DNA of 32,839 nt from Candidatus Uhrbacteria bacterium (GCA_016209345.1 JACQWH010000026.1:1-32839); one strand, 5' to 3'. Counted from the first letter of the stretch, positions 3,669-29,078 are shown. The notes: generated by a model from the sequence alone, not told the origin. A program made the numbers and translations.

Positions 3669-4575
3669 AACATTTCAAAAAATAATCCTTGAGTGGTTTA
3701 CAAAAAATGGCAGGCATGATTTGCCCTGGAGGCAGACGCAGAATCCTTATCGGATTTTGGTGTCCGAAGTGATGCTCCAGCAGACGCAGGTGGACAGGGT
3801 AAAGGAGAAATATAGCGTGTTTTTAAAGCATTTTTCGACGCCTAAGAAACTTGCCGCCGCCAGCCCGGCAGAAGTGCTGACAGTATGGAAAGGGCTTGGG
3901 TACAATCGCCGCGCACTATATCTCAAGCGCGCGGCAGAGGCGATTATTCGCGACCATCACGGACGATTCCCGCGTGCTGTTTTGGACATTGAAAAGCTTC
4001 CCGGCGTTGGTCCTTATACCGCCCGCGCGGTTGCCGTGTTTGCTTTCAACGAACCCCATGTTTTTATTGAGACCAATATCCGGCGGGTGTTTATTTATTT
4101 TTTTGGAGATGTTATTCCGCCGGAGGCCATCGGGGGAATCCAGAAAAAGAATAATTATGGGCTGGATCCCGCCCTTCGGCGGGATGACAAGGGGCGCGAG
4201 AATGACATATCAGATAAAGAGCTTTTACCCATTATTGAAAAAGCGCTGTATAAAAAAAACCCGCGACTGTGGTATAACGCGCTCATGGATTATGGCGCGC
4301 TCGCGCTTGGAGATATTCCTAATCCTAACCGGCGCAGCCGCCACTACGCGAAGCAGTCGCGCTTTGAGGGTTCGCGCCGCTATGCGCGGGCGAGCATACT
4401 GCATTATCTTCTCAAAAAAAAAGCAACCGTCCGCGAGCTGCACCGTTTCTTTTTGTCCGATCCGCATCTTGAACGATATGCGGACACACATTCTATTACG
4501 GATATCCTCACCTGTCTTAAAAAAGAGGGGTTTCTCGATGTATCACACGACAGGTGGAGCGTGAGTACAAAATGA
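3640..4575 (+). CDS. mutY: A/G-specific adenine glycosylase, MutY-like, short Fe-S-free form
   Basis: RHDLPWR, ILVSEVMLQQTQV, WKGLGYNRRA, HhH LPGVGPYTA, ETNIRRV, ALMDYG. No Cys cluster follows ALMDYG. Confidence 0.9.
   Translation: MPNTEKKKIKTFQKIILEWFTKNGRHDLPWRQTQNPYRILVSEVMLQQTQVDRVKEKYSVFLKHFSTPKKLAAASPAEVLTVWKGLGYNRRALYLKRAAEAIIRDHHGRFPRAVLDIEKLPGVGPYTARAVAVFAFNEPHVFIETNIRRVFIYFFGDVIPPEAIGGIQKKNNYGLDPALRRDDKGRENDISDKELLPIIEKALYKKNPRLWYNALMDYGALALGDIPNPNRRSRHYAKQSRFEGSRRYARASILHYLLKKKATVRELHRFFLSDPHLERYADTHSITDILTCLKKEGFLDVSHDRWSVSTK
4110..4189. repeat. In-frame REP/RPE-like palindromic element inside mutY
   Basis: tgttattccgcc...ggaatccag-[AT-rich loop]-ctggatcccgcc-cttc-ggcgggatgaca. 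Translates as VIPPEAIGGIQ...LDPALRRDD. Confidence 0.8.
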
Positions 4576-4598
4576 GTGACATTTGGATGTCACTCATT
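4571..4598. repeat. 12-bp perfect hairpin overlapping the mutY stop codon
   Basis: aatgagtgacat-ttgg-atgtcactcatt; no U-tract follows. Confidence 0.75.
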
Positions 4599-4646
4599 AG
4601 AAAAGGAAGTTATGCACAGCACTGGGGCTTTTCTTTTTTTTATTGG

Positions 4647-4655
4647 TGCTATAAT
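4647..4655 (+). promoter_or_regulatory. Extended -10 promoter upstream of the giant surface-protein gene
   Basis: TGCTATAAT is a perfect TGn-TATAAT. Predicted start near 4662. Confidence 0.6.
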
Positions 4656-4705
4656 GCAAATATGAAGAAATATTTCTTTTCTCCATATTTTAATAATACA
4701 AATAC

Positions 4706-4742
4706 GGTGAAGACGTGTTCGGCGTCTTCATTTTATTTTTTA
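4706..4742 (+). terminator. Intrinsic-terminator-like hairpin in the leader of the giant gene
   Basis: tgaagacg-tgttcgg-cgtcttca followed by ttttatttttt. Confidence 0.5.
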
Positions 4743-4752
4743 ACATAATTTT

Positions 4753-7700
4753 ATGAGGCATATATTTCGCAAAGCTCGACGGTGTGTTGAGAGGGTCATG
4801 TACATTACGACGATAGCATCAACAGTCCTCTGGACGCTCGGTCCGGCAGCACTGCCGGCCAATGCGACAATTAGCATACTTACATCAGTCTCAAGCGCAA
4901 CAAGTGCGCAGACCATCGGGCCGTCGAGCGTACCAACGGCAATATTCGGCATTAACGCGGTTGGGGACGGCGGTGAGAATTTTACTTCATTTTCTCTTGC
5001 TATTACTCCGTCAGCCGGTTTTGTGATGAGCGACCTCGCTGCGCTTGGCACCGGTGCCAGCTCGGGTATTGCTCTCTATCGCGACGATGGGGCAACCCAA
5101 GGATCGTTTGATGCCGCTACTGACGCAAATATCGCCCTGGGTCTTCCGCCTATCATAACTGACGGATCAACTCGCATTTCAAAGTTGATGCCCAGCGATT
5201 CGGTCGGCGTGAGCGCGACAAATCAGGTGGTGGGTTCGGCCGGACGAGACATGAATTTTGTGGTTGGTGATCTTATTTTTGGCAACACAACGGCAAATTC
5301 AGCATCCCTCAACACCTATGATTGGCACGTTGTGACGACAGCGGAAAATATTACGACTGATGCTGCGCCAACAACCTTGCGCCTTGACGCAAACGCAGGG
5401 GGCGCGCCGACATTTGCGGCAAGCACCAGGATTTCGCAATTGACACCCGCATCAACCGGCTCGTACGTCATTAACGGAACGAGCAATACTACAACGCCCG
5501 CATTGACAACCGGCGACATTATTTTTTATCAAACCGGAGCAGGCGCAGGAACATGGGGAATGGTGACCGGTAATTTTACCGCAGCAGCGTCTCCGGTGAA
5601 TGGAGCAAATCTTGGAAATGCAACCTATCGCATTAGCAAGTTGTCCGCGCTCACGGGTTCGTTTGTTGTTTCGGGAACGGATACGATTACGGCCCCGGGA
5701 ACAGGATATACCACGCCAGTTGTTGGAGATATCGTTCTGTATCGTTCTGGCGGACAGGCACTGTGGGGCATTGTGACAAACGCAACCTTGACCAGCGGAA
5801 CGTTTGCCGTTAATAACGCGGCTCTTCCGCCGGGGACCTATCAAATTAGCAAAGTGAATGCCTATACTCCCTCAAGTGCCTTGACATCCGCCATTCCCAC
5901 AGATCAAAACGCTTTTAATACCAGTGATCTCGTCTTTGGCATGCCGACGCAAAATCCGATAACAACTTCATATAATTGGCATATCACAACTGGCGATTCA
6001 TCCGGTAATGCAGCTAATTTTCGTCTTGATGATCGCATGAGCGCTCCGGCGTTTGGATTCTCCGCAATGATTGCGACCGGTGGCGCAGAGCCGGTTCCGG
6101 CAAACAATACCGGTACTAACGAGGGGTCAGATTATTATGTTGCGCTTCGCACCTCGGCATCCGCAGTCAATGGCCACGCTTTTACCGCGGGACTTGCACC
6201 GGGGACATTTGTGCTGACGGGCGGCGTTGCGGGATTACCGACAGAGACGCCTTCACAAACCTATACCATTGCGACAACCGCTCAGCAGTCGCAGTCGGCA
6301 GGGGCAAACACCACGGTCATGGACATGACCAACGGGTTTCTCAAGCTCAAACAGAGCAGTAACTTTAAGGCGGTTGCGCGTGTTCAGTTTGGCAGTACTG
6401 AAAATACAAAAACATTGACATCCATCGCGATTTCTTTTGCCACTGCAAACAGCACAACGCCGACATGGACCGCAAGCGGTGCAGTATCATCAGAACTTCT
6501 TGACCTTGCCGCAACCGGCGGCGGTATCTCGCTATGGAAAGACGGGGGAACCGCAGGGTTTGGCTTGAACGGCGCCGGCGATACGCAAGTTACCCTGGCC
6601 GCAAGTCCGGTATATGGCGCAAGCAACGCGTTTACCATTACTCCGGCAACAGCGCCAACTATTGCGTCGGATGATGTGTACTTTATCGTACTGAAATCCG
6701 ATACGTCCGGTGTGGCAAACAATAATGCATTTACCGTGAACATGGCAACAACCGCCATTACGACCAGCGGCACATCGCCGACAATCGGTGCGTTTCAGAC
6801 ACCGCCGATCGTTATGGATACCACGGTGCCGACGATTGCAAGCGTGTCAGATGTTCCAGGCCAGACAACAAAACTCAGTGTTCGATTCAGCGAGCCGGTG
6901 CGGAAGCTTAATGATGCAGGAGCTCTTACCACATCCGATTTGACCTATACCAATGATGCAACAAACGGATCAGGACGAACCGTGAGCTCGATTTCCCATA
7001 GTCCGGGCGCGGATATTGCAGAACTCACCATGAGCGGCGCTCTAGCGGCCGGTGATTTTGACGGCACACCGTCTCGGTTGGCGGCTTCCGGAGCAGATAA
7101 AATAGAAGATATGGCAGGCAATGCCATGGCAACAACGGCAACAAATCTTGGCAGCCCCTTGATCATTACAACCTCGGTTATTCCGGCAACCTATGTGGCA
7201 GCAGTTTATGATGCCACAACACCGCTTGTCACGTTTGCGGCTCAAGGCGGGGCAGGAACCTATACCTTTGCGGGAAACACACAAGCTGATACGGATGCGC
7301 TTGTCGCGCTTTTGGGCGCAAGTCCCCTTGCCGGCGCCACAGGAAAGCTCACCGGTACGGTTCAGGCAAATACCGCAGGAACCAGGAACGTCACGATAAA
7401 AGTGACCGACGGCGCAGCCGCAACCGCAACAAAACAATTTACGATTAACGTCGCGGCAACGCAGGGAGGCGGTGTTCCCGGATTGACAAATGTCACGCCG
7501 CCATCAGGTGCGCAGAGCGCAACAAATCTGTCAATCGCTATTACCGGCACGAATACGAGTTTTACCAGCGCCAGCACCGTCGCATTCCTACTGAACGGAA
7601 CAGCCGACACCAATATTACCGTCGGAACAGTGACGGCAAATAGTGCAACATCAATCACGGTTCCCATCACTAGCATTGCGGCGGGCGCGACCGCAGGCGC

Positions 7701-10700
7701 TCGGGATGTAAGAGTGACGAGCGGCAGTCAGGTTGTCACCATGCCGGGTGGATTTAATGTCACCGGAACGGTCGCGGCTGGGCTCAATCTCGTGTTTCCA
7801 ACCGCATCGGCAACGGGAATCCAGTTGCCTACGCCCGGATTTAATTTTAATCCCTCAACAAACACCACATTTACCCATTACCGTATTGTATTGAGCGCGA
7901 CGCAGGATTTTGCAACCGCGCTGTGGAACTATGTTTTTCCAAAGCCGGATGCGCAAGGTACGAATGGAAGTCATTGTACCGCGACTTCATGCAATGTGAA
8001 TTATTCAGCGGGAAACTTTCTCACAATCACCCCCGCGTCGACGCTGACGTCAAACACAACATATTACTGGAAAGTGGAGACCTATCAGGATCCCACACCA
8101 ACAACACAGTTTGCATCATCGGATGTAATAGATCAAAACAGGAAGGAAAACACGCCGGTTCGCAGTTTCACCACCTCGGCATCAGTGACGGATGTCCAGC
8201 CGCCGCAAATAGAACATCGTCCGGTTGTCCAGGCGCGCGCAAACGCGTTGGTTACCGTGTACGCGCGCGTGCTTGACAATATCGCAAGCGCGAGCACGAC
8301 GCCGGCCCTTTCCACGACATTGTCTGCCTGTGCAGGTTCCGGATGCACGCCCTCAACATCAACACTGCCAAGCGCGGATGCAAATGACGGCGTTGTTGCC
8401 GGAACGCATGCGCAGAACGGATACTATAGCTATGTTCTCCCGTCGGCGTTTATTACCGCAACCGTAGGAACTATTGTACGGTATTATATTACCGCCACTG
8501 ACGGCACCAATACGAACAATTTTTATCAGCCGGGCGGAACAACGCCGTTTCAGTTCGCAACAACGGCGGCTATCGCATCGAGCGGCGTGACCATTACCGG
8601 TACGGTAAAAGACACCAGCGACGCATGTCCTGCCGGTGTGCAGGGATCGCTTGTGTTTGCCGAAGGCAGCGGTTTTAGCGCGACGACAGGAGCGGATTGC
8701 GCCTATACATTGGGTGCGGCAAATAACGGATTGGCCGTAGGATTCCCCTATGACCTTGTTGTGGCAAAAGACGGATACTCAACCCAACGAAGAGATGCCG
8801 TTCCGGCAGGGTCAACAAGCATTGCTGTTCAACTGGGGCAGGGCGCTACCGGCGGATTTGGCGGAGACACGACGCGGCCGCGTGTACTGCGCTCAATGCC
8901 CGGTGACAAGATGCAGAATGTGCCGGGGAATGATTCAAACATGAGGATTTTGGTGGTGTTTGACAAACCAATGAGTCAGACATCGGTACTGACAAGTGGC
9001 AATATGGTGGTCAATTCCGTGAATGTTCAGACAGGGGTCCTTACCAACATTACCGCAAACGGGTCATGGGCGTATTATTCAACCTATACCATGCCGTTTG
9101 GTGGAACAGAATCAAATGTCGCGGTATGGTCGTTTTCCGGCACAAATACGTTTGGCGATAGCAAGACGATCGCGGTAAAGGTGACGCCAAGCGTTCTTGA
9201 CACATCAGGAAACGCCGTGCAGGGAAATTTGACTGACGGGAGTTATTCATTTTCGTTCACGACCGGCTCAAGTGCAACATCCGTTGGTTTCAACACGGCA
9301 ACCGGAACGTTTGCTGACGGTGGAGTGTTCGGTCAAGGCACAAACATTGCACCGCACGTGACAACAACGGCACCGTCCATGGGTTCGCCCAGCGTACCGC
9401 GCAATACGAAGATCATGATTAACTTTGACACCTCCATGGCCGATGATGCTGTGGGTACGTATACGCTCGCAAGCGGCGTGAAGCTGTTTGAGGTGTCCTC
9501 GGCAGGTGTCGAGACAGATGTCACGTCATTGGCAGTAAACGCCGTCACGCTGACATCTGATAAGAAAGCCGCAACCGTCACGCTTAAAACCACCTATCCA
9601 AGCGAATGCACCGGCGTGGCCTGTGGCGTATTTAAGGCAACCACTCGTTATCGCCTGAAGGTGCTCGGGTCGGCAAAAGCCGCAAACGGAATGACCATGC
9701 GCGCCCCGGGACAGGAAACGCAAGTGGCGTTTATGAGCGACTTTACAACATCCGCCTCTTCTGACACTGTTGCGCCGACCATTGTCGGATCTGATCCGAC
9801 GACGAATGCGGCCGATGTTCCTTCGATGCTTGGGTCGGTGAGCGTGTCGTTTGATAAGGACATGGATTCTTCATCAATTACGACCTCAACCATGACCCTG
9901 ACGACCGGCTCAACAGCGGTCACCGGCACGGTTGAGTATCGGCCGATGGAGCGCACCGCGTATTTTATTCCGTCGCGCGTATTGACGCCGACCACGCAAT
10001 ACACGCTCTCTCTTACCGCCGGAGTTCGGGGAATCAACGGTACGGCAATAGCGGCGGCAACGCGCGCGTTTACCACCGGCTCTGCCGACACGTCCGCGCC
10101 CACTGTGACGTCGCTGACAGCGGATGACACAAACATCTCAATATCATTCAGCAAACCGATGAACTCATCACCGGCAACCGATACGACAAACTTTACGTCC
10201 AGCGTACTGCGCGTTGCCAACTATACGGTGAAATACGGAACAGCGGGGTTTAACGCGGCAACCGCGGGTACAACACTTACACTTCCCGCGACTGCGCAGA
10301 TTACCTATGATGGGAAGAACAATGCGGCGATGATTTCCGGATACCGTCCGACGAGCACGACTGCGGCGCAAGTTCAGGGACAACAGCTCTATGTCGCGGT
10401 TGCAAACGCAAAGGACATCGGAGGAAACGCAATCAGCACCTCCGGGACCGCTCCGGATACCGCAAATACCAGCCGTGCAACCGTGCAGAACAGCGCGACC
10501 ACCCAAGGACAACTCGGGCCGATGACCATTACCAATGACATGATGAAAGCGGTTGGTGATTTTAAGCCAACCACATTTTCCTCTGCAACATTCGGATTCG
10601 CGCCGCAAACGGAAGTACGGCCGTTCAATATGATGACCGGCACCACCACAATTTACGGCGTACATTTGTCTCTCTCGCGGCAGATACCGGATGGAGGCGC

Positions 10701-13700
10701 CATCGTGCTTACCTTCCCGCAAGGGTTTAATGTATCCGGCGCAAAACAGGATATCAACTCTCCGAAACGCCGCGACATAAACGGGCCGGGCACCGGCACC
10801 GTCACGTTCAAGTGCCAGACGAACGTCGCGGGAATGTCCGGCGCGAAGTCCTGCGGAGGCGGCGCGGCAAATGCCGATGATACCGGAACCGCGCAAGGAG
10901 GTCTTGCCGATGACGGGGTTGTGGTAAACGCGAATGCGCGAACCATCACCATTTATGTGAGCGGGGCAACCAACAGCGAAGGACATGATGTGCTTGATTT
11001 TGACATCGGGGGCATCGTCAACTCAACCGTTCCAAAGGATTTCAACACGAGCGGATATACCGTGAGCATCGCGACAAAGAACGGTACGACAAATCTTGAA
11101 ACACTGAGCTCAGTGCCATTCTTTATCCAGTCGGCGGGGACCACCACCTATACGCTTACCGGAACGATTACCGCGACAAACAATAATCAGAGCGGAACGA
11201 TTTCGGTATTCCTTGACTCGCCAATGACCGGCCCGCTTGAGGCAACATCTGCGGATTTTGGCGGCGGACAAACGGCAACGTATTCTTTCTCCAATCTCCC
11301 GCCCGGTGATTATGGATTGAGAACAGAACCGTACGTAAAGATTAATGACACGACTGAATTTCTCGGGAAATTTCCGGAGCGCGTGATGATGAGCGCAAAC
11401 ACCGTGCGCAATTTTACGCTCTCAAGCGCGACCGCGGCAGGTACGGGAACCTCGGTAACGGTTTCCGTTGACGGACCGTCAAGTGAGCCCATTGATATTT
11501 TCGCAAATGGTCCGGCCGGATTCCGCGTGATGCAAAAAACGCTTGACACCAATGCCGGTGCTGAAAACTTTACGATTCGCCTGTCAGACGGCGACTGGTT
11601 CCTTGGGGTTGGTCCCCAAATGCCAAAAGGACAGATGTCCGGCCCGCCGCCTTCGCCGAGCTATCTCCCGCCGCGGCCGGTCAATATCCGTATCAGCGGC
11701 GCTACTTGTGTGATTGAGGGAACCACGACGTGTACCAAAGCATTTACTCTCACCGCATCAACGAAGGAAATACGCGGTATCGTGAAAGATCTCGCAAGCA
11801 AAGTTATAGCAAACGCCAATGTGTTTGCGTACTCACCGTCCGGAACATCAATGGGAAACTTTGCGAAAACAGACACCACCGGAACGTTTATTCTCAATGT
11901 CACCCAAGGAGTGTTTAATGTCGGCGCGGTTATTGAAGGCATGCCCCAATCAAAGGAAGTGCCGGTTGAGGTGGTAAATGACGTGACTACGGGCGCGAAT
12001 ACAAACCTCAAGATTGACGGTGCCGCAACAGCAGTCACGGCTACCGCGGCCGCAACATCTTTTGTGTTGAAGTTGGCAAAACCAGATTATACGATTTCCG
12101 GAAAAGTGACTGACGGGACCAATGTTATCAACGGCGCGTCTGTCTATGCATATAAGCAGGGTGCGCCCGGACGATCCGGCGCCGCAACAGACAGTTCCGG
12201 AAATTATTCCCTCTTTGTGTCAGCTGGTACATGGAGTGTCGGCGCCTTCTTGCCCCAATACGGAAATCTGACTGAACAGACCGTCATCGTCACAACGGCA
12301 AACGCGACGGATATCAATTTCTCGCCAGGGACATCCTACGCGGTCTCCGGAACCGTCACTGTTGGCGGCACCGCGCGGGAAGGAGCCCGAGTGCGCATTA
12401 AGAACAGTTCATACTTTAATGAAACATTTACCGATACACTCGGAGCGTACAGCTTTAATGTGCCGCAAGGAAACGGCTATGTCGTTGACGGATTCGTGCC
12501 GGGTTTTGGAGATATCGCGCCATTAGCCGCGTTTAATGTATCGGCGGCTGTACCGAACAAAGATCTTACGGTCGCGACCCTGCGCACTATCACGATGACG
12601 TTTTCCTCATCGGTTGCAAGCGCGTTTGTTGAACTCCGTTCAACAACAGGGGCGAATATCCGGAAGAAAATTGAGAATTCAACCACCGGAACGCTTTCGG
12701 CGCCTGACGGCAGTTATATCGTAAATATTGATATGCAGGGAGCGCCGATTCCGTTTACCGCCGTTGCCGCAACCGATGGAAGCACGACCTATGCGAGCGC
12801 GACAGGTATTATGACGGTTGCCGACGGTAATGAAGGACTTACCGTCACCGTTCCAACATTGCGAACGATTACGGTTACCGTTCGCGACGGAGCAAGCGCA
12901 TTATTGGCAGATGCGTGGGTTGAACTTATGAATCCGACCAGCGGTGAGCACTTCGGGAGCAAAACGGGCACAAACGGTCAGGCGACGTTGCGCGCGGCTG
13001 ATGGTTCATACTTTATCAACGCAATGAAGCCCGGGTATTACCGCGTGCCGACCTCATTGACAGTCAATGCGGCTGTCGGGACGCAGGCGCTTGTTCTTAC
13101 GGCAGCAACGAAAACAATAGCGGGTACTGTGCTTATCGGCACAACAGGCGCGGCAAATGCGTTTGTGAGAGCCGAAAAGCAGGGCGGTGGATTTGCCGGA
13201 GCAATGACTGATGCAAATGGGCAGTATACGCTCTCTGTGGCGGAAGGCATCTGGAGAGTATTTGCGCGATCCGACGGATATGCAGAGGCGGAACTGAGCG
13301 CCACTGTTGATACGACAACCGCATCGGCGATCGGTAAAGATATTACCCTTACCACAACTGTCACGGTGTCAGCACCGAAGTCAAAGCCGATGACGCCGTC
13401 AACGGGCGGCAGCATTGAAGATACATCGGCAGGTATTAAGGTGAACGTGCCGGCAAACGCGCTGGGCAGCTCATCGTCAGCCGGAAATATGCAGGTGAAG
13501 AAGACGACGAATTATACGCAGACAGAGACCGCGCGACCGGTCGCCGCAGTTGAGATTAGCGCGACTGACGCAAATGGCACCCCCATTAAAACATTGACAG
13601 AAAGCGTGACGGTTGAGCTCACCTATACGAAGTCAGAGCTTGCGACAACAGCATCCTCATCGGATTCGTCCATTAACACAATGTCAGAAATTGAAAAACT

Positions 13701-14904
13701 CGATGTTGGTTTCTGGGATGAATCGGTATCAAACTGGACGACATTGTCCACGACAACGACCTATGTTGACTCAACAGGAGCAGTCGTCACGAGTCCGTCC
13801 GAAGATCTTTCCAATGTTGCGAGTGTGAAATTGAGCGCCCTGACCGATCACTTCTCCTTGTTTGCGCCGGTAGTTCCAACCGATCCGTCAGCACCATCAG
13901 CGCCGACTAACTTCGTCACAGGCACATCGACGACCAGCACAATCAACTTGCAGTGGACCGCAGTAAGCGGCGCGACCGGTTATGACATCTATCGCAGCAC
14001 ATCGTCGGACGGCACCTTTAGCCGTATTGGTTCCGAGCCAACCGTGTCGAGCGGATCAACGGTCACCTATCAGGATACGGGACTGAGTGCCGGCACGGCG
14101 TACTTCTATAAGATTTCCGCGTTGAACAATAACGGCGAGTCAGCCGCGTCAAGCGCAGCAACAACGTCAACGGCATCTTCAACGTCGAGCAGCAGTTCAA
14201 GCAGCTCCGGAGGCGGAGGAGGAAGCAGCTATGTGGCGGCGGCATCGGCAGCAACAACAACCGCAGCAGCAAAGACGGAAACAGCGACAGCAGGCGCAAC
14301 AGCCGTGACGAGCGTCGGTGCTGGCAAATTTGAGATTACTGTCCCGGCAACGGCGGCAAAAGCATCCGCAACTCCCGCAACACCGGCAACTCCAGCTGTT
14401 CCGGGCGTCTCAGCGGCACAAGCAGCAGCACCGGCAACGCCCGCCCTTGCGGCAGAAAAAGTACTCACCGCTGTTCCTGATGCGAAAATTATCGCCCTTC
14501 CGTCGTTCTCACGCTATCTTGCGCAAGGAGCTCGCGGAAAAGATGTCGAAGCGCTCCAGCTTATCTTGCAGGCGAACGGGTACTATAAAGGAAAAGTATC
14601 AGGTATCTTGAATGCGGATACAGTCAAGGCGGTCAAGACGCTTCAGACCTCGGCAAAGATTGCCACGGCAAAGACGGCAGGATACGGCGATGTCGGTCCC
14701 AAGACGCGAGCGTTCCTGAACTCACTGGTTAAGGAAGCAAAGGCAGAGGTGAAGGCGGAGCAGCAATCCATAGACGCAAAAGCCCCGGCAAAACAAGAGA
14801 CGAAAAAAGAGACGGCGGCGCATTCCGTAAAAACAGAACAGCCATCATCATCCTCGTCGGGTGGGACGGCGCTTGATCTTCTAAAGAAATTGCAAAAGCA
14901 ATAA
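4753..14904 (+). CDS. Giant (3383 aa) secreted cell-surface protein: Ig-like, Big_5, IPT and carboxypeptidase-regulatory-like repeats, ZU5-like domain, FN3, C-terminal peptidoglycan-binding domain
   Basis: Signal-like N-terminus ending ANA; T/G/A/S-rich. About five DT..P.(I/V)...(V/I).F(S/D).(P/D)(M/V) SbsA-type Ig repeats and several ISG.V.D....GA.V...TD..G.Y repeats. FN3 (PSAPTNF..LQW..GYDIYRS..YQDTGL...YFYKISA), Ser/Gly and Ala/Pro linkers, and YLAQGARGKDVEALQ..L...GY...VGPKTRAFLN (PG_binding_1-like). Confidence 0.9.
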   Translation: MRHIFRKARRCVERVMYITTIASTVLWTLGPAALPANATISILTSVSSATSAQTIGPSSVPTAIFGINAVGDGGENFTSFSLAITPSAGFVMSDLAALGTGASSGIALYRDDGATQGSFDAATDANIALGLPPIITDGSTRISKLMPSDSVGVSATNQVVGSAGRDMNFVVGDLIFGNTTANSASLNTYDWHVVTTAENITTDAAPTTLRLDANAGGAPTFAASTRISQLTPASTGSYVINGTSNTTTPALTTGDIIFYQTGAGAGTWGMVTGNFTAAASPVNGANLGNATYRISKLSALTGSFVVSGTDTITAPGTGYTTPVVGDIVLYRSGGQALWGIVTNATLTSGTFAVNNAALPPGTYQISKVNAYTPSSALTSAIPTDQNAFNTSDLVFGMPTQNPITTSYNWHITTGDSSGNAANFRLDDRMSAPAFGFSAMIATGGAEPVPANNTGTNEGSDYYVALRTSASAVNGHAFTAGLAPGTFVLTGGVAGLPTETPSQTYTIATTAQQSQSAGANTTVMDMTNGFLKLKQSSNFKAVARVQFGSTENTKTLTSIAISFATANSTTPTWTASGAVSSELLDLAATGGGISLWKDGGTAGFGLNGAGDTQVTLAASPVYGASNAFTITPATAPTIASDDVYFIVLKSDTSGVANNNAFTVNMATTAITTSGTSPTIGAFQTPPIVMDTTVPTIASVSDVPGQTTKLSVRFSEPVRKLNDAGALTTSDLTYTNDATNGSGRTVSSISHSPGADIAELTMSGALAAGDFDGTPSRLAASGADKIEDMAGNAMATTATNLGSPLIITTSVIPATYVAAVYDATTPLVTFAAQGGAGTYTFAGNTQADTDALVALLGASPLAGATGKLTGTVQANTAGTRNVTIKVTDGAAATATKQFTINVAATQGGGVPGLTNVTPPSGAQSATNLSIAITGTNTSFTSASTVAFLLNGTADTNITVGTVTANSATSITVPITSIAAGATAGARDVRVTSGSQVVTMPGGFNVTGTVAAGLNLVFPTASATGIQLPTPGFNFNPSTNTTFTHYRIVLSATQDFATALWNYVFPKPDAQGTNGSHCTATSCNVNYSAGNFLTITPASTLTSNTTYYWKVETYQDPTPTTQFASSDVIDQNRKENTPVRSFTTSASVTDVQPPQIEHRPVVQARANALVTVYARVLDNIASASTTPALSTTLSACAGSGCTPSTSTLPSADANDGVVAGTHAQNGYYSYVLPSAFITATVGTIVRYYITATDGTNTNNFYQPGGTTPFQFATTAAIASSGVTITGTVKDTSDACPAGVQGSLVFAEGSGFSATTGADCAYTLGAANNGLAVGFPYDLVVAKDGYSTQRRDAVPAGSTSIAVQLGQGATGGFGGDTTRPRVLRSMPGDKMQNVPGNDSNMRILVVFDKPMSQTSVLTSGNMVVNSVNVQTGVLTNITANGSWAYYSTYTMPFGGTESNVAVWSFSGTNTFGDSKTIAVKVTPSVLDTSGNAVQGNLTDGSYSFSFTTGSSATSVGFNTATGTFADGGVFGQGTNIAPHVTTTAPSMGSPSVPRNTKIMINFDTSMADDAVGTYTLASGVKLFEVSSAGVETDVTSLAVNAVTLTSDKKAATVTLKTTYPSECTGVACGVFKATTRYRLKVLGSAKAANGMTMRAPGQETQVAFMSDFTTSASSDTVAPTIVGSDPTTNAADVPSMLGSVSVSFDKDMDSSSITTSTMTLTTGSTAVTGTVEYRPMERTAYFIPSRVLTPTTQYTLSLTAGVRGINGTAIAAATRAFTTGSADTSAPTVTSLTADDTNISISFSKPMNSSPATDTTNFTSSVLRVANYTVKYGTAGFNAATAGTTLTLPATAQITYDGKNNAAMISGYRPTSTTAAQVQGQQLYVAVANAKDIGGNAISTSGTAPDTANTSRATVQNSATTQGQLGPMTITNDMMKAVGDFKPTTFSSATFGFAPQTEVRPFNMMTGTTTIYGVHLSLSRQIPDGGAIVLTFPQGFNVSGAKQDINSPKRRDINGPGTGTVTFKCQTNVAGMSGAKSCGGGAANADDTGTAQGGLADDGVVVNANARTITIYVSGATNSEGHDVLDFDIGGIVNSTVPKDFNTSGYTVSIATKNGTTNLETLSSVPFFIQSAGTTTYTLTGTITATNNNQSGTISVFLDSPMTGPLEATSADFGGGQTATYSFSNLPPGDYGLRTEPYVKINDTTEFLGKFPERVMMSANTVRNFTLSSATAAGTGTSVTVSVDGPSSEPIDIFANGPAGFRVMQKTLDTNAGAENFTIRLSDGDWFLGVGPQMPKGQMSGPPPSPSYLPPRPVNIRISGATCVIEGTTTCTKAFTLTASTKEIRGIVKDLASKVIANANVFAYSPSGTSMGNFAKTDTTGTFILNVTQGVFNVGAVIEGMPQSKEVPVEVVNDVTTGANTNLKIDGAATAVTATAAATSFVLKLAKPDYTISGKVTDGTNVINGASVYAYKQGAPGRSGAATDSSGNYSLFVSAGTWSVGAFLPQYGNLTEQTVIVTTANATDINFSPGTSYAVSGTVTVGGTAREGARVRIKNSSYFNETFTDTLGAYSFNVPQGNGYVVDGFVPGFGDIAPLAAFNVSAAVPNKDLTVATLRTITMTFSSSVASAFVELRSTTGANIRKKIENSTTGTLSAPDGSYIVNIDMQGAPIPFTAVAATDGSTTYASATGIMTVADGNEGLTVTVPTLRTITVTVRDGASALLADAWVELMNPTSGEHFGSKTGTNGQATLRAADGSYFINAMKPGYYRVPTSLTVNAAVGTQALVLTAATKTIAGTVLIGTTGAANAFVRAEKQGGGFAGAMTDANGQYTLSVAEGIWRVFARSDGYAEAELSATVDTTTASAIGKDITLTTTVTVSAPKSKPMTPSTGGSIEDTSAGIKVNVPANALGSSSSAGNMQVKKTTNYTQTETARPVAAVEISATDANGTPIKTLTESVTVELTYTKSELATTASSSDSSINTMSEIEKLDVGFWDESVSNWTTLSTTTTYVDSTGAVVTSPSEDLSNVASVKLSALTDHFSLFAPVVPTDPSAPSAPTNFVTGTSTTSTINLQWTAVSGATGYDIYRSTSSDGTFSRIGSEPTVSSGSTVTYQDTGLSAGTAYFYKISALNNNGESAASSAATTSTASSTSSSSSSSSGGGGGSSYVAAASAATTTAAAKTETATAGATAVTSVGAGKFEITVPATAAKASATPATPATPAVPGVSAAQAAAPATPALAAEKVLTAVPDAKIIALPSFSRYLAQGARGKDVEALQLILQANGYYKGKVSGILNADTVKAVKTLQTSAKIATAKTAGYGDVGPKTRAFLNSLVKEAKAEVKAEQQSIDAKAPAKQETKKETAAHSVKTEQPSSSSSGGTALDLLKKLQKQ

Positions 14905-14926
14905 TACTATTTATATCCTTACGCGT

Positions 14927-16429
14927 ATGATATACAGATATGTCATTTCGGCGCTGATTTTTTCTTTCTTGTTTCTTACCGGCGCGGTATCTGCCCAAGA
15001 GCAGAATCAGCAGCAAGATCAGGCGATTGGAGGCCAGCAGCAGAACATGCAGCAGGGCCAGCAACAGAATATACAGGGTCAACAGAAAGATATGCGGAGG
15101 GTGGACGGTGATATGCGAAAAGATATAAAAAATCCCCGCGAAGATGTTCAAGGGGGCAAAGATATGAGGCGCGATGGCGACAAGATGATGGACAATCAGG
15201 GAAAGACGAACCAGCTTCAGAATAAGCAGCAGCGCCAAGGTGCTCAGATGAAGGGGCAAGAAAATCAGAATCGCGGGAAGGAAGGCGAAATGATGATAGA
15301 TGAACAAGATCAAAATGGATGCGCCGAGGGAACAACCTGTGATGGTCCCAGCGAGGAAGAGATGGCAGAGCAAGAGAAACGTATGGAAGAACAAGAAAAG
15401 AAGCGCGATGAACAGCGGTTCAAACAGATGAAGCAGGGGATGAAGCAGTTTACCGGTGGCGTGAAAAGAATGAAATCAGAGCTATCAAAGCTTGAAAAAA
15501 AGCTTGCAAAATGCGGTGCCGGAATCCCCGAAGAGTTAAAGACGGCAATTGCCGCGAGCGAAGCGGCGGTGCCCAAGATCGAAGCGGCAAAGACCGCCGA
15601 CGAGCTAGAAGAGGTCATGGACAGTATTGGCGAGAATGGCGAGATGATGCGCGAGTGGGGCCCGAAAATGGGAGACCTTCATCGAGGATGCGACATGCTG
15701 AAACGAGCGGATCAGGATCTCAAGAAGATGAAAAAGGAAGTGACCCGACTCGGAAAAAAAGTAGCGGCACAAAAAAAGTTCGATCTCTCGGAGCTTCTGA
15801 ATGACTTGAAGGTTGAGTTTGACAAAATTGCTGCTGCCTTGCAGAAAGCAAAGGATCTCGCGAAGACCGATCCGGAGGGCGCGCTTGAAGCGCTCGACGA
15901 TGAGTTTTTCGACGGGTCATCCGATTTCTATCTTACACGCGAGGCGCTTGACATGGCACTCAATGTGACAAAGGGACTGAAACAATCCGACAGCGAAATC
16001 AAACGCTATACTCGGCTCATTACCCAGCTTGAGAAGCAGAAAAAAGATGTCGGAGAGCTTAAAGATCTTCTCGCCCAGCTCAAAAGCAAGCAAACGGAAA
16101 TCACCGCCCTTGTGAAACAGAAGAAGTTTGACCCCGAAGATCTCGTATCGCTTATAGAGGAGGCATTCGATGTGCGCGATGAGCTTGTCAATGCATTGGA
16201 AGGTCTCGGCGCGATCAAGGATTACATGCCGCAATTCAAGAGCGGACCGGGAGTCAAGTTTGATCTCCCGCCCGGATTCGAACGCCAACAGCAAACGCCA
16301 CAGCGGGAACAATTTCAGAACGATGAAGGCGAGCGACAGGAAAGGGGGCTGCAGAATATGGAATTTGACATGAATGATATTCAGTCCTTCTTCCAGAAGA
16401 CAGAGAATAAAACAGTTGCCTCGCTCTAA
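14927..16429 (+). CDS. Secreted alpha-helical/coiled-coil protein with Gln-rich N-terminal region
   Basis: Signal peptide ending VSA-Q, a Q/G/M low-complexity tract, then K/E/L-rich helical repeats. Starts 22 nt after the giant gene. Confidence 0.85.
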   Translation: MIYRYVISALIFSFLFLTGAVSAQEQNQQQDQAIGGQQQNMQQGQQQNIQGQQKDMRRVDGDMRKDIKNPREDVQGGKDMRRDGDKMMDNQGKTNQLQNKQQRQGAQMKGQENQNRGKEGEMMIDEQDQNGCAEGTTCDGPSEEEMAEQEKRMEEQEKKRDEQRFKQMKQGMKQFTGGVKRMKSELSKLEKKLAKCGAGIPEELKTAIAASEAAVPKIEAAKTADELEEVMDSIGENGEMMREWGPKMGDLHRGCDMLKRADQDLKKMKKEVTRLGKKVAAQKKFDLSELLNDLKVEFDKIAAALQKAKDLAKTDPEGALEALDDEFFDGSSDFYLTREALDMALNVTKGLKQSDSEIKRYTRLITQLEKQKKDVGELKDLLAQLKSKQTEITALVKQKKFDPEDLVSLIEEAFDVRDELVNALEGLGAIKDYMPQFKSGPGVKFDLPPGFERQQQTPQREQFQNDEGERQERGLQNMEFDMNDIQSFFQKTENKTVASL

Positions 16430-16439
16430 GAGCTGATAG

Positions 16440-16470
16440 AAAATCCCCCGATTCCAATCGGGGGATTTTT
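16440..16470 (+). terminator. Intrinsic terminator closing the two-gene surface operon
   Basis: aaaatcccccgatt-cc-aatcgggggattttt. Confidence 0.85.
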
Positions 16471-16515
16471 GTGTTTTCCCTCCGTTCAAGCACACGAACA
16501 TTATTGATACACTTA

Positions 16516-16670
16516 GGGCTTGGAAACAAATAATCACTCAAATCTCATCTCATCTTCAGATCATCTTTACGTAAAAAAATCCTCAAAATATGACTATAGT
16601 ATTCATATTTTTTAACATAAATCTGATATAAATCTGAGCGAACTTGGAGTGATAATTTATTTCCAAGCCC
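16516..16670. mobile_element. 155-bp MITE-like element with TTA direct flanks
   Basis: tta|gggcttggaaacaaataatcactcaaa ... ttggagtgataatttatttccaagccc|tta: ~27-bp terminal IR with 3 mismatches and no ORF. Confidence 0.7.
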
Positions 16671-16715
16671 TTACATACTCCCCGTTGATTTTCAGTTGGG
16701 CTCATCTTGGAAGGG

Positions 16716-16800
16716 GATTGGATAGAGTCAAGTGCGTAAAATATGCTATAGCATATTTTACGCACTGAATGAACCTTTTTATCATTTTATTCAAAGACCT
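16716..16800. repeat. ~85-bp repeat copy B (inverted relative to 238-323) with a 36-bp perfect palindrome (16731-16766)
   Basis: agtgcgtaaaatatgcta|tagcatattttacgcact. Flanks gattggatag and aagacct match copy A on the opposite strand. Confidence 0.9.
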
Positions 16801-16881
16801 CTACACACCATGGGTCATTCCTTAGCGGAACCTATACCGCGGATCGGCTCATCCCATCCCATTGTGTAGGTGGGTTTTTTG

Positions 16882-16890
16882 TGATATACT
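16882..16890 (+). promoter_or_regulatory. Putative extended -10 promoter for the nuclease-VKOR-ileS run
   Basis: TGATATACT. Confidence 0.45.
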
Positions 16891-16935
16891 TAAATCTATA
16901 AGCAGGTTTGTTCTGTCATGTTTTGTTTTAACCAA

Positions 16936-16956
16936 AACTCCTAACTCCTAACTCCT
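16936..16956. repeat. Heptamer tandem repeat (AACTCCT x3) just before the start codon
   Basis: aactcct aactcct aactcct aaccc atg. Confidence 0.75.
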
Positions 16957-16961
16957 AACCC

Positions 16962-17735
16962 ATGTCAGATTTTTACAAAGGCAGACGGACGCGAAATATC
17001 TACGATCCGGAATCAACGGCTCCGTTTAAAGTATCCCGATCAAAAATTGAGCTGTTTACGAATTGCCCTCGTTGTTTTTATATTGATGTCCGCCTTGGCG
17101 TGGGGCAGCCCCCGGGATTTCCCTTTAATTTGAATTCGGCCGTTGACATATTGCTTAAGAAAGAATTCGATATGCATCGCGCGGCAAGCACGGCGCATCC
17201 TCTTATGGAGCATTACGGCGTTGACGCGGTTCCGTATCAGCACGCGAGGATTGATGAATGGCGCGATACGTTCAAAGGAATCGCGCATCATCATACTGAT
17301 ACGAATTTTTTGGTATACGGCGGCGTTGACGATGTGTGGGTAAATCCTGCAGGTGAACTTATTGTGGTTGACTACAAAGCGACAAGCAAGGATGCGGAGG
17401 TGACCATTGATGCGGAGTGGCAGGGCGGATACAAACGCCAAATGGAAATATACCAATGGCTTTTTCGACGGAATGATTTTGCCGTTTCCCCGACAGGATA
17501 TTTCGTGTACTGTAACGGAAAGCGCGACCGGCAGGCGTTTGACGGCAAGCTGGAGTTTGATGTGAAAATCATTCCCTATAACGGAGATGATTCCTGGGTG
17601 CACGATACGCTGTTAGCCATGAAGCGAGCGCTTGACACGACAGCGGTACCCGAGCCGGGCAGAAGTTGCGACTTTTGCACCTATCGACGGGATGCGAGGG
17701 ATGTGCTGACGGAAAATGCAAAACGCAAAGCGTAA
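16962..17735 (+). CDS. PD-(D/E)XK nuclease, Cas4/RecB-like, standalone
   Basis: SRSKI..F..CPRCFY, GGVDDVW, IVVDYKAT, QMEIYQW and C-terminal CDFC. Confidence 0.85.
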   Translation: MSDFYKGRRTRNIYDPESTAPFKVSRSKIELFTNCPRCFYIDVRLGVGQPPGFPFNLNSAVDILLKKEFDMHRAASTAHPLMEHYGVDAVPYQHARIDEWRDTFKGIAHHHTDTNFLVYGGVDDVWVNPAGELIVVDYKATSKDAEVTIDAEWQGGYKRQMEIYQWLFRRNDFAVSPTGYFVYCNGKRDRQAFDGKLEFDVKIIPYNGDDSWVHDTLLAMKRALDTTAVPEPGRSCDFCTYRRDARDVLTENAKRKA

Positions 17736-17860
17736 AAGGGCAAGAGTAAATATCAAATAACAAAGCCCAAATGTCAAATCAAGATCAAAATTCAAAGTCA
17801 AAAGGAGCAGTCATTTGGATTTAGGATTTGATTTGATATTAGGATTTTGACATTAGGTTT
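17712..17860. repeat. Inverted 7-nt periodic array (CAAAnnn / nnnTTTG) overlapping the nuclease C-terminus
   Basis: caaaacg caaagcg taaaagg ... caaataa caaagcc caaatgt caaat ... tttggat ttaggat ttgatttgatattaggattttgacattagg. Confidence 0.8.
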
Positions 17861-17873
17861 TATTATATATCCC

Positions 17874-18869
17874 ATGGCCCTCCTAAAACTTCTTCTCATC
17901 TTCACGTCAATCGCCGGTTTTTTTCTGACGCTGTATATAGCGCGCAAGAAGCATGCGCACGAAAAGATGCTCTGCCCAATCGGCGGCAGATGCGAGCACG
18001 TCATGCATAGCGAGTACGCACGTTTTTTCGGCATGCCGCTTGAGCATATCGGCTTATCGTATTACGCGCTTATTTTTGTCGCGTATACGACGTTTTTCAT
18101 TGCGCCTGATTTTTCGCACCCTCTGGTATTGCTTGCTCTGATCGGGATCACGATCAGTGCTTTTTTGTTTTCCGCATACCTTACGTTTATCCAGGCATTT
18201 ACCCTCAAGGAGTGGTGCGCGCTGTGCCTTGTCTCGGCGGGTTTCTGTACGGTGCTATTTGCAACCGCCGTCATCACTTCGGACGGATCGCTTCTGCCAC
18301 TGCTTGCGGCATACGAACCGCTTATTGATACCGCGCATTTGTTCGTGCTTGCCGTCGGACTTGGGACAGCGACTGTTGGCGATATTTTCTTCTTCAAATT
18401 TTTAAAGGATTTCCATATTTCCGAATGGGAACACGATGTGCTGACGACTATATCGCAGGTTACGTGGTTCACGCTTGCCGCTATCATTCTTTCCGGCGCC
18501 GGACTTGCGTTGGCGCGGGTGGAGGATATCGGAGCACCATCCGCCATGCAGGTTTCCTGGATAGCGCTTGCGGTCATCATCGCGAACAGCGCCGCCGTTC
18601 ATTTGAGCATCCTGCCGCGACTCATCCATATCAGCATGGGGGAAAAACATCGGCATACCCCCGGCGAATTGCATTCAATACAGCGTTTTATTTTCACCTC
18701 CGGAGCGGTTTCGCTCGTATCATGGTATGTCTTATTTCTCTTGGCAATCGCGCGCGACATCTCGCTCTCATTTCAGGCGCTTCTGGTCACCTATGTTGGT
18801 GTTCTTGTATGCGCGGCGATAGGCGGACGCATGATGGAACATATTCTTTCAAAACAGCAGCACCGGTGA
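17874..18869 (+). CDS. Vitamin K epoxide reductase (VKOR) family protein fused to a C-terminal 4-5 TM domain
   Basis: CPIGGRC..V..S.YA.FFG.P loop, YLTFIQAF.LK.WCALC active site. ATG at 17874. Confidence 0.88.
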   Translation: MALLKLLLIFTSIAGFFLTLYIARKKHAHEKMLCPIGGRCEHVMHSEYARFFGMPLEHIGLSYYALIFVAYTTFFIAPDFSHPLVLLALIGITISAFLFSAYLTFIQAFTLKEWCALCLVSAGFCTVLFATAVITSDGSLLPLLAAYEPLIDTAHLFVLAVGLGTATVGDIFFFKFLKDFHISEWEHDVLTTISQVTWFTLAAIILSGAGLALARVEDIGAPSAMQVSWIALAVIIANSAAVHLSILPRLIHISMGEKHRHTPGELHSIQRFIFTSGAVSLVSWYVLFLLAIARDISLSFQALLVTYVGVLVCAAIGGRMMEHILSKQQHR

Positions 18870-18892
18870 TACTAATTCAGCATCCTCGTTTT

Positions 18893-28123: not shown

Positions 28124-28152
28124 TTGAAAAAATGAGTCGAATATGGTATACT
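28124..28152 (+). promoter_or_regulatory. sigma70 promoter giving a probably leaderless transcript
   Basis: TTGAAA, 17 nt, TATACT with TGn extension. ATG at 28159 lies 7 nt after the -10. Confidence 0.65.
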
Positions 28153-28158
28153 GTCTGT

Positions 28159-28479
28159 ATGAAGAAGATCAAAAAAATGAAAAATACAGCGCAAAAACAG
28201 CGCCTTCCGGAATCGTTCCGCCCGATGTTTTGGTCGTATCCTTTCAGAGATCTCAATAAGGATGAGGACGCCTCTCTCATCATCAAACAAATTTTATCCT
28301 ACGGCGATTTGTTCCAATGGAAATGGATGATGCGGCAGTATGGGACACGAAAAATTAAGGGAATACTTTCACGAACCCCAAAAACCGCCGTTCGACCAAG
28401 TTTGGTTGAACTTTCAAAAACAGTTTTCAATGTAACTTCAATGCCTCATGCACGACGAGTGCCTCACGGGAGAAGCTAA
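28159..28479 (+). CDS. DUF6922-like small protein (putative antitoxin partner of AbiEii)
   Basis: FWSYPFRDL.......IIKQILSYGD...W.W....YG..KI pattern; overlaps the downstream nucleotidyltransferase. Confidence 0.7.
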   Translation: MKKIKKMKNTAQKQRLPESFRPMFWSYPFRDLNKDEDASLIIKQILSYGDLFQWKWMMRQYGTRKIKGILSRTPKTAVRPSLVELSKTVFNVTSMPHARRVPHGRS

Positions 28480-29078
28480 ACGATTGTTTCCGCGTCTCGC
28501 GAACTTTCGCGGCTATCACTTAGTCGGCGGTACTGCTTTGGCGCTCCAGATCGGACATCGTGTTTCCTACGATTTTGATCTTTTTACGGAACATGCGCTC
28601 GCTCCAAACCTTCACGCAAAAGTAAAAAAAGTATTTTACGGAGAACGAGTCAAGCCGGTTTTTCGTATGACAGAACAATATGATATTTTCGTATCTGACA
28701 TCAAAACGACATTCCGTTATTACCCCTATCCGCCGGTACACCCGCTAAAAAAACATCATGGCGTTCCTGTACTCTCAATAAAAGATATTGGTGCATCAAA
28801 GACATTTGAAATCGGTCAGCGAGCGGCATATCGCGATTACGTTGACGTCTTTATTTATACTCAATGAACGGTACGCAACGCTTGACGAGCTGATACGGCT
28901 TTCGGAGAAAAAATACGGAGATGATTTTAACGGCCGGCTCTTTCTTGAGCAACTGGTGTATCTTGGTGACATCAGTGATAGAAAGGTTGAATTTCTTCGT
29001 TCACCATTGACGGAAAGGCAATTGATGTCGGGATTAAAAAAAGAAGTGAGGCGCTATATAAAAGCATTTGCTGTATGA
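28448..29078 (+). pseudogene. AbiEii/AbiGii-family nucleotidyltransferase toxin split by a +1 frameshift near 28850
   Basis: LVGGTALALQIGHRVSYDFDLF and K...I..R...RDYVD in one frame; continuation FIL.....L.ELI....KKYG..FN..LFLEQLVYLGD in the +1 frame. Confidence 0.8.

Follow-up and report, generated by a model that had tools for sequence, protein, structure and literature searches.

A putative fibrillar-adhesin-like giant and a loosely linked, secreted helical neighbour in Candidatus Uhrbacteria

The genome of Candidatus Uhrbacteria bacterium GCA_016209345.1 is assembled to 1,062,749 bp in 84 contigs (93% complete), and the window analysed here is one whole contig of it, 32,839 bp long (JACQWH010000026.1:1-32839). 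On its + strand lie two open reading frames (ORFs), 22 nt apart, for proteins of 3,383 and 500 amino acids (aa), called the giant and the partner below. The original prediction had joined them, from a promoter-like site to a strong terminator, into a two-gene surface apparatus. The two ORFs, the terminator and the 11.7 kb taken by the pair (~1.1% of the assembly) were all recovered, and the giant gene is the longest ORF of the whole genome; the reading as an obligate two-gene apparatus, by comparison, is only partly supported. We favour, with moderate confidence, an account in which the giant is a Sec-exported fibrillar-adhesin-like protein, anchored non-covalently to the wall of its own cell, with the partner as an optional accessory. 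Below, G000 denotes the genome of this locus, and other labels of this type, such as G001, denote genomes of relatives. The features of the locus are:

4647..4655, + strand: extended -10 promoter-like site of the giant gene, TGcTATAAT, read by eye
4706..4732, + strand: 5' leader hairpin and U-run, terminator-like, 20 nt before the ATG of the giant
4753..14904, + strand: giant gene, 3383 aa
4753..4866, + strand: giant signal peptide, aa 1-38, read from the sequence, cleavage presumed
4867..6312, + strand: head of the giant, aa ~39-520, beta-sandwich and four small beta repeats (aa ~141-435) in the AF2 model
7228..7452, + strand: PKD/Ig-like module, aa 826-900, matching collagenase PKD domains in the PDB (E ~1e-4)
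8590..10077, + strand: CarboxypepD_reg (aa 1280-1355) and three Big_5 (aa 1372-1775), Pfam
11770..13350, + strand: about five CarboxypepD_reg-like modules in an array, aa 2340-2866, Pfam
13897..14163, + strand: fn3, aa 3049-3137, Pfam, strongly conserved among relatives
14173..14517, + strand: low-complexity linker rich in Ser/Ala/Thr/Pro, aa 3141-3255 (115 residues), putatively wall-spanning
14533..14712, + strand: PG_binding_1 (PF01471), Pfam match aa 3261-3304
14710..14901, + strand: C-terminal tail rich in Lys/Glu/Ala, aa 3320-3383, by composition
14905..14926: intergenic gap between giant and partner, 22 nt, with no hairpin and no obvious Shine-Dalgarno sequence
14927..16429, + strand: partner gene, 500 aa
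14927..14995, + strand: partner signal peptide, aa 1-23, read from the sequence, with presumed cleavage between VSA and QE
14996..15346, + strand: disordered region rich in Gln/Met/Asp/Lys, aa 24-140, from composition and a predicted local distance difference test (pLDDT) score < 50
15353..16216, + strand: helical-rod core of the partner, aa 143-430, seven helices, from AF2 and alignment
16265..16279, + strand: LPPGF motif just past the core, with L447 and P448 invariant and F451 nearly invariant
16439..16470, + strand: intrinsic terminator, 14-bp stem and T-run

Both products start with a signal peptide read from the sequence and the giant holds no other hydrophobic segment, in agreement with the extracytoplasmic location first proposed for the pair. 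The N-terminus of the giant, conserved in relatives, consists of a basic n-region and a moderately hydrophobic stretch that closes in ...GPAALPANA, with T as the presumed first mature residue; no 19-residue window of the giant reaches a Kyte-Doolittle mean of 1.6. The mature protein (~340 kDa) is acidic, rich in Thr, Ala, Ser and Gly and poor in Cys, with an isoelectric point (pI) of 4.8 for the body and 9.8 for the C-terminal anchor region. Beyond the signal peptide it has 12 Cys, which fall into six close pairs (1075/1080, 1193/1198, 1292/1316, 1619/1624, 2021/2034 and 2319/2327). Domains were mapped by searching Pfam with the full-length protein and with 22 overlapping tiles of 300 aa. This supported the proposed order of beta modules followed by a peptidoglycan-binding domain, except that this domain is not the exact end: ~80 residues follow it, the last 64 rich in Lys/Glu/Ala, and their closing motif ALD.LK.L.KQ is common to this giant and that of G007. 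PG_binding_1 scored 31.1 bits with Pfam and 37.4 bits in a search of the genome (cut-off 23), in which the giant was the single match; the same region also weakly matches the N-terminal region of SleB. Matches of aa 826-900 to Big_9 and He_PIG were weak and under their cut-offs, and Pfam had no match in aa 1-825 or ~1800-2340. A self-BLAST at E <= 1e-3 returned no internal repeat pairs, because the modules are too diverged. Sequence matches in the PDB were confined to the fn3, PKD-like and PG-binding pieces; by this search the giant is not closely homologous to any S-layer protein that has been characterised, and that refuting condition of the original prediction did not come about. The genome carries two penicillin-binding protein (PBP) transpeptidase genes and therefore makes its own wall, and searches of it (93% complete) for sortase and SLH gave no match.

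Two observations on the giant gene come from four groundwater runs of one study, which yielded short contigs only. In all four, a contig links position 14762 to the earlier position 14351, two letters lying between them; this may be a tandem-duplication variant around PG_binding_1, or the low-complexity repeats may have affected the assembly. A contig of run X1 covers 10120-11579 at a word depth of 206, against ~15 elsewhere, with 118 differences and 3 gaps, and its small deletions near 10839 recur in contigs of two other runs; a ~92%-identical segment of the giant seems to be present in a relative that is more abundant in this water.

The head of the giant matches no family in Pfam, adhesive families included. 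An AF2 model of aa 1-560 (24-row alignment; predicted template modelling score 0.78, mean pLDDT 79.6) is all-beta past residues 2-28, which are drawn as one helix. Whereas Foldseek with this model returned nothing at E <= 1e-3, an exhaustive structural search of 48,161 chains gave two with Z >= 8, both sialidases: 6mnj_A (Z 11.6, root-mean-square deviation (rmsd) 2.8, 141 residues aligned) and 8gn6_A (135 residues aligned at Z 9.0 and rmsd 3.2, within residues 31-177 of the chain, its N-terminal part). Ig-like adhesin and cohesin domains followed below Z 8. The best structural match is thus the N-terminal beta-sandwich of bacterial sialidases, to which the head is 10-14% identical; it has no sialidase catalytic domain, and the two share a fold at most. 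Aligned head residues run from ~43 to ~510 and are interrupted by four repeats of ~70-85 residues each, marked by motifs like R-I-S-K-L, G-D-I-I-F and W-G-x-V-T. On this model the head can be read as a sandwich of the carbohydrate-binding-module (CBM)/Ig-like kind with four small beta domains inserted, and glycan-binding would be a lead. One head repeat has a weak match (E 9e-5) elsewhere in the genome, at G000:C36:116-316, with four in-frame TAG stops, which may be a decayed fragment.

We then followed the giant in other genomes. A word-indexed search with the head, whose profile match spans 4798-6312 in the window, found 23 other proteins of 2,232-4,812 aa; those from named organisms belong to Uhrbacteria or Patescibacteria and have generic names only. 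The head is present in 8 of 16 family genomes and in 10 of 251 genomes evenly sampled from the class, where six of the ten matches cover only the first ~100 profile positions and fall on the N-termini of other ORFs, 2,850-3,080 aa long. The giant of G007 is 83% identical to this one over 3,155 residues. The C-terminus is PG_binding_1 in G000, G001, G002 and G003, with two matched stretches in G003, and by alignment also in G007; the giants of G009 and G012 end in an unnamed module of ~200 aa. A constant head with an exchangeable anchor fits an N-terminal working tip and a C-terminal wall anchor. Neither this giant family nor the helical-core family of the partner turned up in literature searches; the giant belongs to a family without a name, although giant wall-anchored fibres themselves are already known. 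Among single relatives, the G002 giant (4,828 aa; L023 3024-17507) has the head module three times in tandem, and the G007 giant (L049 ~11100-12500) has ~450 extra residues before PG_binding_1 relative to this giant, with two copies of a ~45-residue repeat, ...YYLDP...KR..L.RP.[ED]AF..MR..[GA][IL]G[IV][ST]N.D...IP.

The mature partner (~54 kDa, pI 5.1) had been described as all-helical. This is true of aa 143-430, for which AF2 (21-row alignment, pLDDT ~90) draws helices at 143-195, 202-220, 224-281, 288-312, 316-370, 376-397 and 403-426, and not of aa 24-140 and 434-500, which are predicted to be disordered. Its hydrophobic stretch lies at residues 1-24. An alignment with 20 relatives extends across the entire core of the partner, which shares with them motifs such as MDEQRFKxMK, KCGVGxPEEL, MQEWGP, AKTDP and then LPxxF; core residues C196 and C255 are nearly invariant. 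We considered LPPGF as a sorting signal of sortase or PGF-CTERM type and rejected it, as no hydrophobic segment follows the motif and the genome has no sortase match. A core profile run against 1.84 billion representatives matched 608 proteins at E <= 1e-3 and 279 at <= 1e-30; among the 150 matches listed, the core is mostly close to the C-terminus, in proteins roughly 300-1,070 aa long. Most family members have a long pre-core region that opens with a single transmembrane-like segment, whereas the partner of this clade has a cleavable-looking signal peptide and no membrane anchor. In the class sample the core is present in 33 of 251 genomes, and in the family in 10 of 16.

Searches of Pfam, NCBIfam and PDB sequences found no relative of the partner (best E of the PDB profile search, 0.045). 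Baculo_PEP_C was rejected as its family, with 20 bits against a cut-off of 38; some core relatives carry the precomputed label PF27226.1, which is unconfirmed, and the core may already have a Pfam entry. Foldseek with the core gave 0 matches at E <= 1e-3, and other fold searches returned generic helical bundles only, the best being a designed minibinder (Z 11.9), with EzrA at Z 10.4 and an rmsd of 12. All these scores lie under the bars for helical proteins, Z ~13 and a template modelling (TM) score of 0.5. The core resembles the helical rods of Gram-positive bacteria, which are antiparallel bundles: Fap1 NR-alpha (2kub, 3rgu) gave Z 10.2 over 81 residues, and in the ESM Atlas, where feature scores reached at most 0.78, the structure rows named DUF1542, FIVAR and GA clusters, flagged under the bar and so leads only. 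With none of these rods does the partner have a sequence relation, and the likeness is one of resemblance only. From its sequence relatives, the core is the signature of a large uncharacterised Patescibacteria family, seemingly confined to these bacteria.

Are the two genes linked? The original prediction expected them to stay adjacent in other genomes, and the pair does recur, on the same strand, in five of the eight family genomes that have a giant, with gaps of 22 (G000), 38 (G001), 100 (G002), 92 (G003) and 21 nt (G009). The gaps of G002 and G003 contain a hairpin, followed in G002 by a TATAAT-like box, and co-transcription is therefore not general. In the other three genomes the linkage fails: G007 and G012 have a giant without a partner, and G010 has its giant on contig C6 and a partner-family gene on C1. 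G007 has the same PD-(D/E)XK, VKOR and isoleucyl-tRNA synthetase (IleRS) genes downstream of its giant with the partner gene missing from that spot, and neither protein nor profile search matched a partner in its genome (93% complete, 10 contigs). Conversely, G011, G013 and G014 have a partner-family gene without a head match, and G005 has a 550-aa partner-like gene alone between HhH-GPD and PD-(D/E)XK/VKOR genes, and no giant; all such absences rest on incomplete genome bins. As the G007 giant is 83% identical to ours without a partner, as G010 is unlinked and as G012 has only the giant, the partner is not obligatory. Nor are the five adjacencies independent, because the pair sits in a syntenic block shared by kin; the HhH-GPD gene upstream of the giant, for instance, is also found in G002, G003 and G009.

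The partner family leads a largely separate life elsewhere. In 25 public loci with the core, drawn from a collection of one genome per species, a giant homologue lies upstream in three (contigs of G001, G009 and G003) and no giant in 22, of which five have less than ~350 nt of upstream DNA or none. Given these 22 loci and the cases of G007, G010 and G005, the role first proposed for the helical protein, as a stalk or chaperone dedicated to the giant, is not supported. Head and core occur together in only three genomes of the class sample, G000, G002 and G066, and in G066 the two genes are divergent and 2.5 kb apart, with the giant-like ORF cut by the contig end. The neighbours of the partner family elsewhere are mostly housekeeping genes (Dus, PCMT, radical-SAM/UPF0004 and others). 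No functional neighbour recurs beyond tandem paralogues (L042, L045), a ~975-aa LTD + PKD surface protein (L043 4836-7760, L044 648-3641) and ~930-aa DUF4012 proteins (L038 11031-13841, L047 824-3610). Among proteins of 876-2,500 aa one giant-core fusion was found, of 884 aa, which is weak evidence, and one co-fold of one region of the giant, its C-terminal 344 aa, with the partner core scored 0.00, which gives no verdict. A single groundwater contig of X1, possibly the source sample, spans 14733-16589 across the gene junction; it adds no independent support. One tie between the families is a module: after its core, the partner-family protein of G010 has ~200 aa that are 36-39% identical to the C-terminal module in the giants from G009 and G012 (E values 1e-39 and 1e-36), with the motifs GERAGV..SYK, MAYGLR and AI.YSGA and no Pfam match (L017 17165-19186; L014 2543-9886; L051 5533-12666). 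This module is a candidate new wall-binding module. The two families share C-terminal modules and probably belong to the same envelope layer.

From the gene structure, domains, folds, distribution and synteny computed here, we infer a topology, own-wall binding, adhesion and co-transcription, and so arrive at a model. The basic C-terminal end of the giant, PG_binding_1 with the Lys/Glu tail, would grip the peptidoglycan of its own cell non-covalently, and the linker of ~115 Ser/Ala/Thr/Pro residues would pass through the wall. Some 2,600 residues, largely beta-sandwich modules (PKD-like, Big_5, CarboxypepD_reg, fn3), would form an acidic stalk on the order of 100 nm long, a rough estimate from the number of modules. 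At its end the stalk would present the ~480-residue N-terminal head as the likely ligand-binding tip, perhaps a glycan-binding one. The partner would be a distinct envelope protein, also secreted, that serves this envelope zone as an optional accessory and is neither a required subunit nor a stalk or chaperone. Most members of its family would be held by an N-terminal membrane anchor of their own, and that of G010 by the C-terminal module it shares with some giants.

Several results weigh against this model. About 1,300 stalk residues (aa ~520-825, 900-1280 and 1800-2340) are without an assigned fold, and the match of the head to the sialidase sandwich is moderate, covering only ~140 of its ~480 residues. 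The same-strand adjacency in five of eight giant-bearing family genomes comes from at least four genera and would fit a functional pair. All five giant-linked partners are short, with a signal peptide only, as against 3 of the 25 unlinked ORFs that are complete at the 5' end; this comparison, whose groups were defined after looking and whose genomes are kin, hints that a partner encoded next to the giant may need it in order to be retained. A true two-component apparatus, in which the secreted helical rod would attach to the giant and serve as its sheath, cap, spacer or assembly factor, would fit both patterns, the gaps of 21-38 nt in three genomes and the greater divergence of the partner (48% between G000 and G001, compared with 61-74% for the giant). 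We nonetheless judge it unlikely: G007 retains its giant without a partner, G010 is unlinked, G012 has only the giant and G005 only the partner-like gene, the partner family is far wider (33 against 10 of 251 class genomes, both in three) and elsewhere keeps company with housekeeping genes, fused forms come down to the single 884-aa protein, and the whole block is syntenic among kin. It is slightly more doubtful again that the giant and an anchor-less rod make up an undescribed ABY1-type Patescibacteria envelope structure, in which the rod would decorate or space the base or shaft of the fibre and the helical-core family would be a general lineage-specific scaffold.

Two further alternatives turn on the giant itself. 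It might form the canopy or lattice of an S-layer-type envelope over the wall, with the helical protein as spacer, much like the archaeal SlaA/SlaB pair. Its acidic composition, rich in Thr/Ala/Ser/Gly and poor in Cys, would suit this, as would its rank as the largest gene of the genome and its being the sole protein with a recognised wall-binding module; the structured 5' leader, described below, is conserved, and is reminiscent of S-layer gene leaders. The 'beads on a string' of Big_5/Ig modules also resemble the Bacillus-type S-layer protein SbsC (PMC13635256). Yet no solved S-layer protein is among the PDB sequence matches of the giant nor among the listed fold matches of the head, the one part that was folded, a 340-kDa protein laid out as head, stalk and anchor is like a fibre and not a lattice unit, and the anchor is PG_binding_1 in a genome (93% complete) that has no SLH match. 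The head, in 8 of 16 family and 10 of 251 class genomes, is also too patchy for a core envelope layer, and the partner is dispensable in G007, so that we give this reading a slim chance only. More improbable still is a reversed topology, with the N-terminal segment as membrane anchor and the C-terminal PG_binding_1 as a distal tip that grips the wall of a host. The organism is probably an episymbiont, judging from its small genome, PG_binding_1 could bind any peptidoglycan, and the AF2 model shows residues 2-28 as one helix. The N-terminal segment, however, is broken by Gly-Pro, contains an A-x-A site and stays below transmembrane-grade hydrophobicity, and what varies among relatives is the C-terminal module (PG_binding_1, a second copy of it, the unnamed one), the head being kept. 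A low-complexity linker next to a wall-binding module is, moreover, the usual wall-spanning arrangement.

How does the own-wall fibre that we favour compare with known systems? The S-layer of Sulfolobus, made of SlaA and SlaB, pairs a large beta-rich outer protein with a smaller helical one, encoded side by side. In contrast to that pair, the partner here is not obligatory, as G007 shows, has no membrane anchor, and would be a bundle rod instead of one long coiled coil. Nearer to the giant are fibrillar-adhesin-like proteins, among whose defining anchor domains PG_binding_1 is counted in the main text of Monzon and co-workers (PMC8286594). As portrayed there, these proteins are likewise long and secreted, and combine a stalk of tandem domains with a terminal domain of a different kind and a domain for anchoring to the cell; here, 3383 aa with a signal-like sequence, a tandem stalk (three Big_5 and at least five CarboxypepD_reg, besides fn3 and PKD-like modules) and a PG_binding_1 anchor would correspond, judged on sequence. 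The head of this giant differs in matching no known adhesive Pfam family, and its stalk modules Big_5 and CarboxypepD_reg are not mentioned in that main text. Giant surface proteins are also a recognised theme in Candidate Phyla Radiation (CPR) genomes, where, according to the main texts on Vampirococcus lugosii (PMC8080830) and Patescibacterium danicum (PMC11809585), they are inferred to mediate host contact. Here as there, a reduced genome spends ~1% of its DNA on one huge multi-domain, presumably surface protein. The giants of those two organisms have other domains (FhaB and DUF2341; WD40, PKD, DUF11 and integrin), and the head, PG_binding_1 anchor and helical neighbour found here are not described in the main texts of PMC8080830 and PMC11809585.

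We also examined the signals around the two genes, and the sequence suggests that both are probably carried on a single transcript that begins at the promoter (4647-4655) and ends at the terminator (16439-16470). The terminator folds at -23.9 kcal/mol, with a z of -4.4, and none of 200 shuffled sequences was as stable. Support for the promoter-like site proposed at the outset is divided: TGcTATAAT was read by eye and aligns with promoters of the form TTGACG-spacer-TATACT or TAAACT upstream of the G007 and G009 giants, whereas a two-hexamer scan of + strand 4576-4752 listed no site; the scan missed it because the -35 is poor here. The gene preceding the giant, an HhH-GPD glycosylase, ends at 4575. 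Between the promoter and the giant, the leader at 4660-4755 folds at -22.2 kcal/mol (z -4.9), and its hairpin at 4706-4732 consists of GGTGAAGAC, a loop and GTCTTCA, then the U-run. Both arms are identical in G000, G007 and G009; the leader is thus better conserved than the coding sequence, as the giant protein of G009 is only 26-33% identical, and identical stems leave no covariation. From its sequence, this hairpin is a possible attenuator, mRNA stabiliser or translation element. The leader as a whole (4647-4752: promoter, A/T-rich stretch, hairpin and U-run) is nearly identical in G007 and G009. Its A/T-rich part begins with an ATG at 4662, and a conserved leader peptide is doubtful because the upstream frames from this ATG end differently relative to the hairpin in the three genomes. 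An Rfam search of 4400-17000 at E <= 1 gave five weak matches, all far under their gathering scores, which were rejected. A look-up of RNA data sets containing 13500-16500 listed none.

Beyond the terminator come ~490 nt without a long ORF (16471-16961), which include another terminator-like hairpin (16858-16874) and, just before the ATG of the next gene, CTCCTAA three times in tandem (~16939-16960). Next, at 16962-21853, are genes for a PD-(D/E)XK nuclease, a member of the VKOR family and IleRS, in synteny with G007 (L049 13089-17895) and G005. The VKOR homologue, as read from sequence, would fit disulfide formation in the adjacent secreted proteins with paired Cys. Farther along, at 28132-28867, a DUF6922 ORF adjoins an AbiEii-like ORF (N-terminal part only), and the two look like a short type IV toxin-antitoxin-like pair or the remnant of one. 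The giant is not the only very large ORF of G000 (others lie at C4 8963-17797, C42 2717-9508, C9 23664-29114 and elsewhere). They include proteins of 2,945 aa with CBM_4_9, 2,264 aa with subtilase and DUF5018 repeats, and 1,817 aa with Big_7 and TSP3, and four of 1,407-1,692 aa without a Pfam match.

How uncultivated, ultra-small Patescibacteria make contact with hosts or surroundings is poorly understood, and giant surface proteins are the usual suspects. The locus overturns nothing in this picture, as giant CPR adhesin-like proteins are established and the tie of the partner to the giant is loose. What it offers is a specific case, amenable to folding, in which head, stalk and wall anchor are defined, and it points to a large uncharacterised family of extracytoplasmic helical-domain proteins, with at least 608 sequence clusters. 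If giant and partner did prove to form a two-part envelope structure, the locus would provide a first molecular handle on the surface structures of ultra-small groundwater cells.

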